DNA of 64,000 nt, from assembly GCA_963812605.1 (NCBI GenBank), contig CAWEWF010000001.1, forward strand, positions 320,001 through 384,000. The letters are read 5' to 3'. Under the pieces are notes generated by a model that did not search any database, had not been told where the DNA came from, and saw nothing but the letters and a program-made list of their open reading frames with translations. Source of the DNA: an uncultured Verrucomicrobiae bacterium. Its GTDB lineage: Bacteria > Verrucomicrobiota > Verrucomicrobiia > Palsa-1439. The position numbers and the translations under genes are program-made. This document shows, piece by piece, positions 6,252 through 59,681 of the stretch; positions within the stretch are counted from its first letter, which is position 1, and the number at the start of each line of letters is the position of its first letter.

Positions 6252-7103
6252 GTGCCGGAAATCGCATACGTTAACGGAGAATTTTTGCCTCTCGAACGCG
6301 CCACCGTCCGTGTGGAGGACCGTGGTTTTCAGTTTGCCGACGGCGTTTACGAAGTTGTGCGCACGTATGGCGGGAAACCCTTCGCGACTGACGCGCATCT
6401 CGCCCGGCTTTTTCGCAGTCTGGCTGCCATCGAACTTGTTACACCGCAGATCACAGCCGAGCACCTGCGTTCGATCATCGAAAAGGGCGTGCAACGTGCC
6501 GGTTTTGCCGAGGCGCTTGTTTACCTGCAAATCACCCGGGGCTATGCGCCGCGCCACCGGGGAATGCCGAAGGATGTCAAGCCCACGATTGTGATGACGG
6601 TGCGCGAACTTCCGGCACCCGCGTTGAAATTGCCAGCAACAGGCATTGCCGTCATCACGATGCCGGAGTTCCGCTGGGCGCGACGCGATATCAAGAGCAT
6701 TGCGCTGCTGCCCAGCGTGCTGGCCTATCACGCGGCGAAGAAGGCAGGCGCGAACGACGCGATCTTTGTCGAGGAAGACGGAACCGTGAATGAAGCAACG
6801 GCGGGCAATGTGTTCCTGGTGACGCAGGGGCGATTGCGCACGCCGCCGAAGAGCACGCACATTCTCGCCGGCGTCACCCGTGACAAGCTGCTGGAGGCCG
6901 CGCGCGCGGCGGGGATTGAAACGGTGGAGGAACGGATCACGAAATCCGATCTCTACTCGGCGGAAGAGATCTTCCTGACCAGCACCACGTCCGAGGTGGC
7001 GCCGGTCGTGACGGTGGATGGAAAGCCGATTGGAACGGGGAAACCGGGGCCGGTATCGGCGAGGATTTACGAACAGTTCGCGCGAATGTTTATTCGGACG
7101 TGA
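6252..7103 (+). CDS. dat: D-amino-acid transaminase / aminotransferase class IV
   Basis: AYVNGEF, EDRGFQFADGVYEV, YLQITRG, PLP lysine in DIKSIALL, ILAGVTR, EEIFLTST. Confidence 0.85.
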   Translation: MPEIAYVNGEFLPLERATVRVEDRGFQFADGVYEVVRTYGGKPFATDAHLARLFRSLAAIELVTPQITAEHLRSIIEKGVQRAGFAEALVYLQITRGYAPRHRGMPKDVKPTIVMTVRELPAPALKLPATGIAVITMPEFRWARRDIKSIALLPSVLAYHAAKKAGANDAIFVEEDGTVNEATAGNVFLVTQGRLRTPPKSTHILAGVTRDKLLEAARAAGIETVEERITKSDLYSAEEIFLTSTTSEVAPVVTVDGKPIGTGKPGPVSARIYEQFARMFIRT

Positions 7104-7215
7104 AGGGATTGGCTGTGTTCTTGCTCTTTCTTGTGGTGGTCGCGGTTCTGGCTGCGTATTGTTACCCTCATGGGCAGAGAATTCAAAACGTACCAGTACC
7201 CCGCTTGCTCGATGG

Positions 7216-12983: not shown

Positions 12984-13080
12984 CGCGTTCCAGCATCGTA
13001 AGGATAGTCCGCCTCGCGGGAAATGTCGAGGGGGCGCCGGTAGTGTCTTAATTTGCCGCATCGCTCATCGTTCGTGTTTT

Positions 13081-13106
13081 GTAGCCGAAGCTTACGCTTC
13101 GGCTAC
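13081..13106. repeat. GTAG REP-like perfect hairpin
   Basis: GTAGCCGAAGC-ttac-GCTTCGGCTAC. Confidence 0.7.
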
Positions 13107-13159
13107 GAGTTGGCGGATGCAAATTAAGACATCACTCCGGTACAGCATGAATGCGAGCC

Positions 13160-57242: not shown

Positions 57243-57743
57243 ATGGGCATTTTCACCGCAGCAGTTGCGTTATTCAGCAATGGTGGCGTGGGCCAACGGG
57301 AAAGAAAGCCTCGAGGCGCCCATTCCGATGACGAAGCCGAACCGAAAGGGACGGTCCTGGTGATCGATGACGACCCGACGTTCCTGGAGGCGATCCGGCT
57401 TCTCTTGCGCGATGCGGGATACAATGTGCTGACCTCCAGCACCGGCCCAAAGGGCCTCGACATGGTGCGTTATGCCCCCAAAGATGTGCGCCTCGTGTTG
57501 CTCGACTACAACATGCCCCGATTCAACGGTGCCGAGACGCTCGAATTCCTGCACAAGCTGAACCCGGCCCTGAAAGTCGTGGCCGTCTCCGGGTTCCGCG
57601 TCGCCGACCTTCCCGAAAGTTTCCACCGTGGCGTCGATCGACTCCTTTCCAAGCCGTTCAGCAACGATCAATTGTTGAAGACAGTGGAGGAAGTTATCGA
57701 AGGCAATTCCGTCAGCGAAGCCGCCGTTTCCGCCTCCCGCTAG
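57243..57743 (+). CDS. single-domain response regulator
   Basis: LVIDDD, LLDYNMP, SKPF. Confidence 0.88.
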   Translation: MGIFTAAVALFSNGGVGQRERKPRGAHSDDEAEPKGTVLVIDDDPTFLEAIRLLLRDAGYNVLTSSTGPKGLDMVRYAPKDVRLVLLDYNMPRFNGAETLEFLHKLNPALKVVAVSGFRVADLPESFHRGVDRLLSKPFSNDQLLKTVEEVIEGNSVSEAAVSASR

Positions 57744-57788
57744 CTCCTTCCATCAACCCGGATAATTTTCCTCGTCCGGGGTTGTCTC

Positions 57789-58082
57789 GGTAGTGTATCA
57801 GTTTGAATCAGAGGGCACGGATTCAGATCAGTTTATCGGCGTAATTTGAGCGAACTCTCTTCTTCAAGAGGAACTGGGACAATATCCCCAACGGAAAGAC
57901 CAAGAACCATGCGGTTTTCTCCCACCCATACGAGATGCAGACGGTGAACAGGGCAAAATACAAGACCAAACCAATCCAACGAATTACTCGCCAGCTAGTC
58001 GTGTTCACGGATTGGAAGTTTATGGCACCCGGTCAATCAGCGCAATGATTTCCTCGACTTCCCAAACGTGGTCAGCAATACC
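57789..58082 (-). mobile_element. 294-bp non-autonomous IS derivative with passenger gene
   Basis: Flanked by GTTGTCTC direct repeats (57781-57788, 58083-58090); ends GGTAGTGT... and, as reverse complement, GGTATTGC...; contains transposase-like tail GIADHVWEVEEIIALIDRVP*. Confidence 0.8.
57823..58008 (-). CDS. small two-TM passenger protein (61 aa)
   Basis: MNTTSWRVIRWIGLVLYFALFTVCISYG...; low GC; lies inside the mini-element. Confidence 0.6.
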   Translation of the reverse strand: MNTTSWRVIRWIGLVLYFALFTVCISYGWEKTAWFLVFPLGILSQFLLKKRVRSNYADKLI

Positions 58083-58175
58083 GTTGTCTCTTGCAATTTC
58101 CACTTTGTTGGACTACACATCTCTTTCGAGGCGGTTTTCGACAGTTGGACTTCGTCGAAGCGAGTTGACCGAGAA

Positions 58176-59681
58176 ATGAACCCAGAAGAAAGCGCGCGGC
58201 CACGGCATTATTGCGGGCTGTTTGGGATTTACGGACACCCGAACGCGGCGGAGCTGACCTATTACGGGTTGTACGCGCTGCAGCACCGCGGCCAGGAAAG
58301 CGCGGGAATCACGGCTTCCGACGGCATCGACCTGCGGACCTACAAGGGCATGGGGCTCGTCGGTCAGGTCTTCGACAAGAACATCCTGCGTTCCCTGCCG
58401 GGTCATCTCGCGATCGGTCATGTCCGTTACTCGACCACCGGCAGTTCCAATATCAAGAACGCCCAGCCGCTCGTGGTCGATTGCGCGCGCGGGCAGATAG
58501 CCATCGGCCACAACGGCAATCTCACCAACGCCTCCCACCTGCGCCTCGAACTCGAAGAGCAGGGGTCGATTTTCCAGACGACCGTCGATAGCGAAATCAT
58601 CCTGCATTTGCTCGCGCGTCCATCCGACCACGACCGGGCGCATTCGCTCGAAGCGGTCATGCGCAAAATCCAGGGCGCGTACTCGCTCGTCATCATGGGC
58701 GAAGATGAACTCATCGGCGTCCGCGATCCGTTTGGCTTTCGTCCGCTGGTGTTGGGCAAACTGGCCGCGACGAAGGAAGACGGCAGCGAGGGCGGTGTCG
58801 CCTACGTGCTGGCGAGCGAAACCTGCGCGCTCGACCTCATCCACGCCGAGTACGTGCGCGACCTCGCCCCCGGCGAGATCGTTGTCATCAACAAGGAAGG
58901 CGTGCGCTCGGTCAATCCCTGGGCGGGTACCCAGCAGCCGCACGCGTTCTGCATTTTCGAGTACGTGTACTTTGCGCGGCCGGATAGCGACATCTTCAAC
59001 AAGAACGTCGCGCAGGTCCGCATCAACCTGGGCCGCCAGTTGGCGCGCGAGCATCCCATTGAGGCGGACCTCGTGATCCCCGTGCCCGACAGCGGCAATT
59101 GGGCGGCGATGGGGTTCGCGGAGGAAAGCGGGATCGATTTTGGCAATGCTTTCGTCCGCAATCATTACGTGGGCCGCACATTCCTGCAGCCGACCCAGCT
59201 CATCCGCGATTTTGGCGTGCGGGTGAAACTCAACCTCATCGAGGAAATGGTCGTGGGCAAGCGCGTCGTCGTGGTGGACGATTCGATTGTGCGCGGCACG
59301 ACCGCGCGCGCGCGGGTGATCACCTTGCGCGAGGCCGGCGCGAAGGAGGTTCACATGCGCGTCAGTTGCCCGCCGCACAAATGGCCCTGCGCCTATGGCA
59401 TCGATTTCCCGACGCGCAAGGAGTTGATGGCCGCGAACAATTCGCAGGAACAAATCCGCGAATTTCTCGGCGCCGATTCGCTCGGCTACCTCTCGCTGGA
59501 CGGCATGATCGCCTCCACCGGCCTGCCCGCAAACGAATTCTGCGCCGCCTGTTACACCGGCAACTATCCATCCCCCGTCGAATCCGAAATGGACAAGTTC
59601 GTCATGGAACAGCGCCGCACCAAATATCGCCGCCCCGTCTCCGATTTGGTGCACGACGATACGCAGAGGCCGTTGTTATGA
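58176..59681 (+). CDS. purF: amidophosphoribosyltransferase
   Basis: Propeptide + CGLFG, LQHRGQESAG, HVRYST, VDDSIVRGTT, Fe-S-type Cys in CIFE and FCAAC. Confidence 0.98.
   Translation: MNPEESARPRHYCGLFGIYGHPNAAELTYYGLYALQHRGQESAGITASDGIDLRTYKGMGLVGQVFDKNILRSLPGHLAIGHVRYSTTGSSNIKNAQPLVVDCARGQIAIGHNGNLTNASHLRLELEEQGSIFQTTVDSEIILHLLARPSDHDRAHSLEAVMRKIQGAYSLVIMGEDELIGVRDPFGFRPLVLGKLAATKEDGSEGGVAYVLASETCALDLIHAEYVRDLAPGEIVVINKEGVRSVNPWAGTQQPHAFCIFEYVYFARPDSDIFNKNVAQVRINLGRQLAREHPIEADLVIPVPDSGNWAAMGFAEESGIDFGNAFVRNHYVGRTFLQPTQLIRDFGVRVKLNLIEEMVVGKRVVVVDDSIVRGTTARARVITLREAGAKEVHMRVSCPPHKWPCAYGIDFPTRKELMAANNSQEQIREFLGADSLGYLSLDGMIASTGLPANEFCAACYTGNYPSPVESEMDKFVMEQRRTKYRRPVSDLVHDDTQRPLL

Follow-up and report, generated by a model that had tools for sequence, protein, structure and literature searches.

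The 64,000-nucleotide stretch of DNA analysed here, referred to as the window, harbors a 294-bp piece of an insertion sequence upstream of purF. The piece is a precise insertion accompanied by the 8-bp target duplication of its family; one of its ends is the family's terminal repeat, and the other is the start of transposase homology. We consider it likely that it represents the 3'-terminal part of a passenger-carrying, single-ORF IS1-family element, moved from a full-length donor by way of the true end and a non-canonical internal end. In its present form, the 294-bp piece is non-autonomous and probably immobile.

Architecture and setting of the inserted piece

The fragment, its flanking repeats, and its constituent parts are arranged as follows:

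57789 to 58082, minus strand: whole inserted fragment, 294 bp, running in element orientation from the truncated transposase 3' end through the small ORF to the true terminal repeat.
57781 to 57788, no strand: left copy of the target-site duplication, GTTGTCTC, 8 bp, based on the sequence and on the single homologous 8-mer in relatives.
58083 to 58090, no strand: right copy of the target-site duplication, GTTGTCTC, 8 bp, based on the sequence and on the empty sites in relatives.
57789 to 57807, plus strand: genuine IS1-family terminal inverted repeat, GGTAGTGTATCAGTTTGAA, the multi-copy end lying downstream of the transposase gene.
57823 to 58008, minus strand: 61-amino-acid, predicted two-helix membrane ORF (the passenger) with a GTG start, based on the ORF call and on homologues in the same position.
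58020 to 58082, minus strand: last 20 codons of a probable IS1-family transposase, GIADHVWEVEEIIALIDRVP, and its stop codon, based on tblastn, DNA matches, and alignment of C-termini.
58076 to 58082, minus strand: non-canonical second end with the tip GGTATTG, as compared with GGTAGTG at the true end.

Inspection of the sequence showed that the GTTGTCTC repeat cannot be extended by a single base on either side. Read inward, as the reverse complement, the right end of the piece is GGTATTGCTGACCACGTTTGG. The minus-strand ORF that spans 58020 to 58103 opens with seven flank-derived residues (VEIARDN) and then continues into the transposase tail. The GC content amounts to 0.48-0.49 within the piece versus 0.57-0.65 in its flanks, the contig means being 0.57-0.59. 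Two hydrophobic stretches are present in the 61-amino-acid ORF, peaking at 1.77 and 1.31 on the Kyte-Doolittle scale over 17 residues. A sequence-only reading of this DNA had described exact 8-bp repeats bracketing 57789-58082, a right end encoding the GIADHVWEVEEIIALIDRVP tail (58082-58020), a low-GC 61-amino-acid ORF with two transmembrane segments between the ends, and a location just upstream of purF. Direct reading, minus-strand translation, base composition, hydrophobicity, and a profile match to purF agree with this description on every point.

The GTTGTCTC 8-mer by itself is not rare, with three occurrences in the window versus 1.57 expected, and its significance therefore rests on the placement of its copies. 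The left copy lies immediately next to the tip of a multi-copy IS end, the right copy borders the exact point where transposase homology starts, and relatives possess one copy only. The insertion point lies 85 bases upstream of purF (start at 58176; TIGR01134, 534 bits, cut-off 350), which is followed by purM, and a response-regulator gene (PF00072) is located upstream of the insertion. Directly after the insertion point (window 58091-58100) and 76-85 bases upstream of purF, a TTGC(A/T)ATT(T/C) motif is present in 11 of 11 congeners (L021-L031). As the insertion sits immediately upstream of this motif, a purF promoter element may have been spared. A promoter and terminator scan of 57650-58250 returned no promoter-like sites and two terminator-like sites, the latter corresponding to the chance level.

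The insertion site in relatives

The site is uninterrupted in all 11 congener loci examined, where the left flank leads into a single 8-mer (GTTGCCCC, GTTGCTCC or GTTGCGCC) and from there into TTGCTATTT, the sequence that also follows the right repeat in the window. With a 1.2-kb query across the site, the flanks were found in the relatives searched and the 294-bp piece was absent from them. Contigs from four soil-metagenome runs were also compared with the locus. A contig of run X2, about 97% identical, joins 57780 to 58083 and thereby leaves out 302 bases, 8 letters being assignable to either side. A contig of run X1 crosses the left junction without a difference. The purF-upstream site is hence known both empty and filled, the difference being 294 plus 8 bases. 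Since the empty-site allele, which the earlier reading had proposed to look for in relatives, is present in the congeners and in a metagenome contig, the piece represents a genuine insertion that duplicated 8 bp of its target. No full-length element occupies the purF site in the 11 congener loci or the compared metagenome contigs, and no loose end at 58082 hinting at a donor copy was observed among the metagenome contigs at the locus, where cover is thin and consists of contigs only.

Full-length relatives of the transposase

A tblastn search with the tail against the source genome (G000) identified a transposase remnant at C8 (E 0.002), and the tail DNA matches the tails of remnants in the congeners G013, G003, and G010 (E 5e-5 to 1e-3). 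All 12 full-length relatives collected end in the C-terminus TPAMEAG(V/I)(A/S/T)DHVWS(L/I)EE(I/V)(V/I)ALL. The transposase homology begins exactly at the right boundary of the piece, and the residues before it are encoded by flank DNA homologous to the purF upstream region of relatives.

An internally deleted copy in G003, the N-terminus of which matches the NCBIfam IS1 model, served as a query and produced matches in 25 of 45 family genomes, the source genome included. Seven of the 22 loci with long matches are complete elements of 2311-3055 bp. Their terminal repeats match at 17-20 of 20 positions and begin with GGTAGTG or GGTACTG, their 8-bp duplications are exact in six cases and agree at 7 of 8 positions in one, and their transposases consist of one continuous ORF of 274-276 amino acids. 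The identical 20-mer of the left end of our piece terminates the 3055-bp element in the congener G015. Passenger genes are located between the transposase stop and the end, as exemplified by an NYN-domain passenger between the transposase stop and the near end in G015, and extra genes are found on both sides. Five of the seven (L039, L040, L041, L044, and L047, in G022, G008, G013, G051, and G015) contain a conserved, basic ORF of 83-100 amino acids by the far end, with the sequence MPKRSRK...GRLGGLKGGKARAKKLS...RW, and the ORFs between transposase stop and near end vary, comprising the NYN-domain protein and several predicted membrane proteins. The source assembly (89.96% complete, 15 contigs) yielded no full-length transposase and two other remnants only.

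With regard to classification, the full-length transposase of G015 scores 48.7 bits against NF033558 (cut-off 100) and 21.8 bits against PF03400 (cut-off 24.1), and the tail of 20-27 amino acids alone matched no model. Homologues at 65-90% identity to the G015 transposase often carry PF03400 in precomputed matches, and both NCBI and JGI label them 'IS1 family transposase'; the homologous transposases number more than 8000. The ISfinder consensus of IS1-family ends is GGnnnTG. The terminal repeats of the IS1 family start with GGT, as does the left end of the piece (GGTAGTG...), and the right end matches a terminal repeat only in its 7-base tip, at 6 of 7 positions. A target duplication of 8-9 bp, likewise characteristic of the family, is seen as 8 bp in the piece, in six relatives, and in nine short two-ended elements, and at 7 of 8 positions in one more. 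Classical IS1 possesses insA and insB' frames joined by a programmed -1 frameshift, and the relatives instead have a single ORF, which presumably places them with the single-ORF IS1 subgroups, unlike E. coli IS1. We take the full-length relatives to resemble the ISMhu11-type group of ISfinder, which is single-ORF and passenger-carrying; this likeness, in GGT... ends, 8-bp duplications, and an ORF of about 275 amino acids, applies to the full-length relatives, of which the window contains the terminal 294 bp only. The sequence-only reading would have been refuted by a tail unrelated to transposases or by full-length parents with unrelated termini. The tail instead matches the C-terminus of proteins named IS1 family, and the parents share the ends, the 8-bp duplications, and the placement of passengers between stop and end.

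Distribution of the true end in the source genome

Matches to the first 16-21 bases of the piece, and to no more of it, occur at nine other places in the source genome. A census of ends within three mismatches of ten reference 19-mers revealed 56 IR-like ends, and nine short elements (101-1312 bp) bear such ends on both sides together with exact 8-bp duplications. The 294-bp piece is the only duplication-flanked element in this census in which the second end is not a terminal repeat. Contig C10 (positions 1-242) starts within a segment of an IS1-type end that shares 88% identity with the 242 bp nearest the end of the truncated element in G001 described below, so at least one further IS copy was cut off by the assembly. 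Given this contig start and an assembly that is 90% complete, IS copies may be missing from the assembled sequence.

The passenger ORF

An all-versus-all comparison of the ORFs between transposase stop and end uncovered a 55-amino-acid homologue of the passenger in G001:C69 (E 2e-14), and a six-frame search located the family in three of 47 order genomes, the source genome included (the others at G001:C69 and G005:C2). In G001:C69, tail, ORF, and end follow one another, and a stop already interrupts the tail. In G005:C2, the ORF lies between a trace of the tail and a degenerate end-like repeat with the tip GGTATTG. These two copies have differing left boundaries, and a duplication is absent. 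The three proteins are 41-42% identical and share the motif C..(G)WEKT.W, with pN of about 0.40 versus pS of 0.54-0.75.

A profile search of 1.84 billion representatives retrieved 19 cluster representatives at E <= 0.001, ranging from 43 to 192 amino acids, 15 of which measure 52-76 amino acids. Named members are labelled 'hypothetical protein', and none of 10 representatives reaches a cut-off in a Pfam scan. The sample of the phylum gave one weak match in 400 other genomes, and a word-indexed search and peptide-pattern scans of genome and metagenome contigs, in which exact words are needed, returned no close homologue. Judged from these comparisons, the 61-amino-acid ORF is a real, rare family of predicted small proteins. 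The homologues at the same position in two other remnants, together with pN below pS, uphold its earlier designation as a passenger gene.

A second truncated copy and the tail remnants

A further truncated copy, 570 bp in length, is located at G001:C132. It comprises 53 transposase codons, a 118-amino-acid membrane passenger ORF, and a true end of a different subtype, and an exact 8-bp repeat, GCGGTCTC, is found outside the true end and at the truncation point. In 1400 shifted-8-mer control trials, a repeat of this kind turned up in 0.14% (0.0014 per locus). In seven of nine congener loci, the flanks run on without interruption and contain a single copy of the site. The second end of this copy, GCTGGAA, matches the tip at 3 of 7 positions and displays 1 base of microhomology, for which reason microhomology deletion is not an explanation at this junction.

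Among 28 other tail remnants with a true end, the copy at G001:C132 is the one with an exact repeat at the truncation point, and two have a 7/8 repeat, which corresponds to the chance level. Four further short tails show no substitution-only 8-mer match, and one of them has an 8-mer with a 1-base indel. Three candidates were left out of the case count: G007:C5 (186 bp, repeat 7/8), the flank homologue of which is absent in five genomes searched; G003:C113 (112 bp, repeat 7/8), where the intergenic region differs in relatives; and G008:C7 (8-mer with a 1-base indel, a possible third copy), the flanks of which occur in no other genome of the genus. A 176-bp candidate in the source genome (C1:153419-153594, repeat AAGAAGCG) was rejected as unproven, with the repeat falling in a lysine-codon run and the relatives being rearranged. 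A shared truncation hot-spot was also considered: the starts of five short tails fall 15-25 codons before the stop, no two at the same base, and because the search pattern itself limits this range, no hot-spot is claimed.

Across 17 congeners and family members, tail-only remnants number 32 (plus 4 short ones) versus 5-6 head-only remnants, about 6 to 1 (L070-L102, L133-L136). These counts derive from our own sorting of the match table, and the excess exists even though the head portion of the query exceeded its tail portion more than twofold in length. A recognisable true end lies 12-1145 bp downstream of the tail in 29 of the 34 tail remnants examined, that of the window included. The excess of tails suggests a process anchored at the tail-side end, with the caveat that the ratio may be exaggerated by the tail being the better conserved part.

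The second end

The tip of the second end, GGTATTG, agrees with GGTAGTG at the true end in 6 of its first 7 bases (GGTAnTG), and the ungapped agreement over 19 positions is 6. Past the first 7 bases, the right end is without resemblance to the terminal repeat. In the interior of seven full-length relatives, 21 of 18050 positions show a tip resemblance of at least 6/7 (0.0012), and at the site homologous to the second end these relatives read GGCGTTG, GGTGTTG, GGTGTTA, GGCATTT, GGTGTGG or GGAATTG.

The two verified cases disagree on tip resemblance (6/7 versus 3/7), as the second end in G001 is without a look-alike. We regard it as an even choice whether the internal end was selected for the likeness of its GGTATTG tip or whether the second end is largely sequence-independent; the latter version could arise, for example, if a copy begun at the true end were terminated early. 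The earlier interpretation as a whole is supported in part. The resemblance of the tip, at 6/7 and a chance of about 0.001, is unlikely to be accidental, and its recognition by the transposase as a look-alike site in its own coding region is not borne out by the G001 case with its 3/7.

Route of origin

In the route that we favor, the true end would have been joined to one side of an 8-bp staggered target cut, and a point inside the transposase gene would have acted as the second end, in a one-ended or pseudo-end transposition from a full-length donor. We infer that the donor copy resided elsewhere and that the event took place in a single step. One-ended transposition entails one genuine end, a second end that differs between events, and continuous donor DNA, and the two truncated copies display this pattern, with second ends at 20 and 53 codons from the stop. 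A one-step insertion is favored because of the tip resemblance, the second independent case, and the directional bias of the remnants. Counting against it, the searches yielded no donor, the two cases disagree on tip resemblance, the right end resembles the terminal repeat only weakly, exact repeats are scarce among the other tail remnants, the candidates beyond the two cases are unverified, and structure alone fits either one step or insertion followed by deletion. To our knowledge, classical IS1 work requires both ends. A donor for the unit of ORF plus tail was sought as well: the source genome holds no other copy, and 44 other family genomes hold only short tail or end matches.

The search for a donor bears on the alternative of a deletion in situ, according to which a full-length insertion made the GTTGTCTC duplication and the part from the far repeat to the codon G of the tail was subsequently lost. 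This account is in keeping with the lack of a donor in the genomes searched, and a far-end tip of GGTAGTG or GGTACTG would share a direct 4-base GGTA with the internal GGTATTG, such that a microhomology deletion would give the sequence seen. Internal-deletion derivatives are moreover common in these genomes, as illustrated by G003:C64 and by copies of 1303 bp in G008 and 842 bp in G005; those observed, however, retain both terminal repeats. A deletion reaching the outer boundary would have to occur twice independently, with 1 base of microhomology at the G001 junction, and a full-length occupant of the site is absent from the 11 congener loci and the metagenome contigs. Taken together, we judge a deletion in situ to be unlikely.

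We assign a still lower probability to two other accounts. A working, asymmetric MITE with a history of repeated movement as one unit, in which GGTATTGCTG... would be the usual second end, would account for the perfect duplication and the 6/7 tip resemblance, and the G005 remnant does place a GGTATTG-tipped, end-like repeat beside a homologous small ORF. Such an element is nevertheless hard to reconcile with a single copy in the source genome, with nothing but tail or end matches in the 44 other family genomes, with an ORF found in only 3 of 47 order genomes (source included) and one weak match among 400 other phylum genomes, and with two homologous ORF copies that have different left boundaries and are without duplication. 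The piece was initially described as a mini-transposon, and this holds for the precise 294-bp insertion with its duplication, whereas repeated mobility finds no support in the single copy and in the lack of the unit in the 44 other family genomes searched. Capture without a transposase, in which stray IS DNA entered at a chromosome break or template switch and the 8-bp repeat is junctional microhomology, would suit a second end with little or no resemblance to the terminal repeat in both cases. It is equally improbable, given that one end of each truncated copy matches the terminal-repeat tip to the exact base, that the length of the repeat is exactly the 8 bp of the family, and that both copies of the repeat derive from one 8-mer of the host.

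Beyond the single event, a one-step, one-ended insertion raises the prospect that the IS1-family transposases of this soil verrucomicrobial lineage regularly transpose anchored at the 3'-side end, with the second end at more or less arbitrary internal points. We put this forward tentatively and consider it rather doubtful. If true, 5'-truncated, duplication-flanked copies would be the DDE-transposon counterpart of LINE 5' truncation. The transposase would be shed and the genome seeded with solo ends and passengers, such as a small membrane protein, and the roughly six-to-one excess of tail-only remnants would be accounted for.

Comparison with known systems

DDE insertion sequences are conventionally presented as requiring a matched pair of ends, and truncated copies are usually put down to decay. 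The present case suggests, from comparative sequence data, that a single proper end is sometimes sufficient for an IS1-type element to move: there are two independent truncated copies, both with an exact, family-sized duplication and a verified empty site in relatives. A one-ended piece can bring along a passenger gene and leave the transposase behind. If general, this would be a route by which cargo genes get fixed in chromosomes, and some annotated IS fragments would be insertion products rather than remnants. The case also offers substrates for biochemical tests, namely a true end and a defined internal site.

One-ended transposition in the Tn3 family, reportedly described by Motsch et al. 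in 1985, is said to involve a DDE transposase, one genuine repeat, a variable second junction without a repeat, and a normal target duplication, and its products are said to be long, often including the whole donor plasmid. The 294- and 570-bp pieces, unlike these products, end inside the element, and the transposase family differs. ISEcp1 and other IS1380-family elements combine a true end with a weakly similar substitute end, produce a normal duplication, and carry extra genes. Substitute ends of the ISEcp1 and IS1272 type are located outside the element, and flanking genes are thereby added, whereas the substitute end of the 294-bp piece is internal to the element, and the transposase gene does not travel with it. 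For IS1272, one report refers to an 'alternative inverted repeat' (PMC4923244). The 'IR-replacing' transposition of IS1272 was considered as a parallel and set aside as not comparable, as it involves no duplications (PMC5678879).

MITEs, like the 294-bp piece, are short, are without a transposase, share the duplication of their parent, and rely on a transposase supplied in trans. As internal-deletion derivatives of insertion sequences, they possess both terminal repeats and occur in multiple copies, in contrast to the single repeat and single copy here. True MITEs abound in the source genome, nine of the short two-ended elements having exact 8-bp duplications. The right end of the piece agrees with the terminal repeat at only 6 of 19 ungapped positions, and in the source genome only the self-match exceeds the first 21 bases. 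The 294-bp piece is not a MITE.

The closest documented parallel is the one-ended transposition of IS801 (IS91 family). IS801 has a rolling-circle HUH transposase and is not known to make a target duplication, in contrast to the DDE IS1-type transposase, inverted repeats, and 8-bp duplication of the present element. Passages of the IS801 report describe 'miniature sequences' of its right end, 229, 360, and 679 nt in length (PMC3189936). According to the same passages, these pieces, like ours, have one true end and an internal stop resembling the other end in a few bases (in IS801, a tetranucleotide), are inserted as units, and can carry neighboring DNA (PMC3189936). The IS801 events were caught experimentally (PMC3189936), whereas the 294-bp event is deduced from sequence. 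A search of a limited literature collection found no account of IS1-family elements undergoing inward one-ended events accompanied by target duplications.

Further elements in the source genome and the window

The source genome also contains a decayed 1.9-kb IS1-type element at C14:314329-316196, which belongs to another end subtype (GGTCGTG..CTAATAGATT at both ends), has stop codons in its transposase remnant, and is without an intact duplication.

Two additional elements are located in the window itself. At 7104-7200, a solo IS1-type end, GGTACTGGTACGTTTTGAA, has its tip at 7200 on the minus strand, and the element DNA there amounts to about 97 bp and contains a partial hydrophobic ORF. This segment begins directly after the stop of a 283-amino-acid host ORF (6252-7103), which by eye we take to be a class IV aminotransferase. 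A matching 8-mer was sought within 4 kb and not found, and this solo end may be another truncated end piece. At 13039-13139, a MITE of roughly 100 bp is bounded by the ends GGTAGTGTCTTAATTTGCC... and ...GCAAATTAAGACATCAC and contains an internal palindrome. Its family is represented in the source genome by 133-bp copies with exact 8-bp duplications at C4:136211-136343, C5:55133-55265, and C6:75045-75177.
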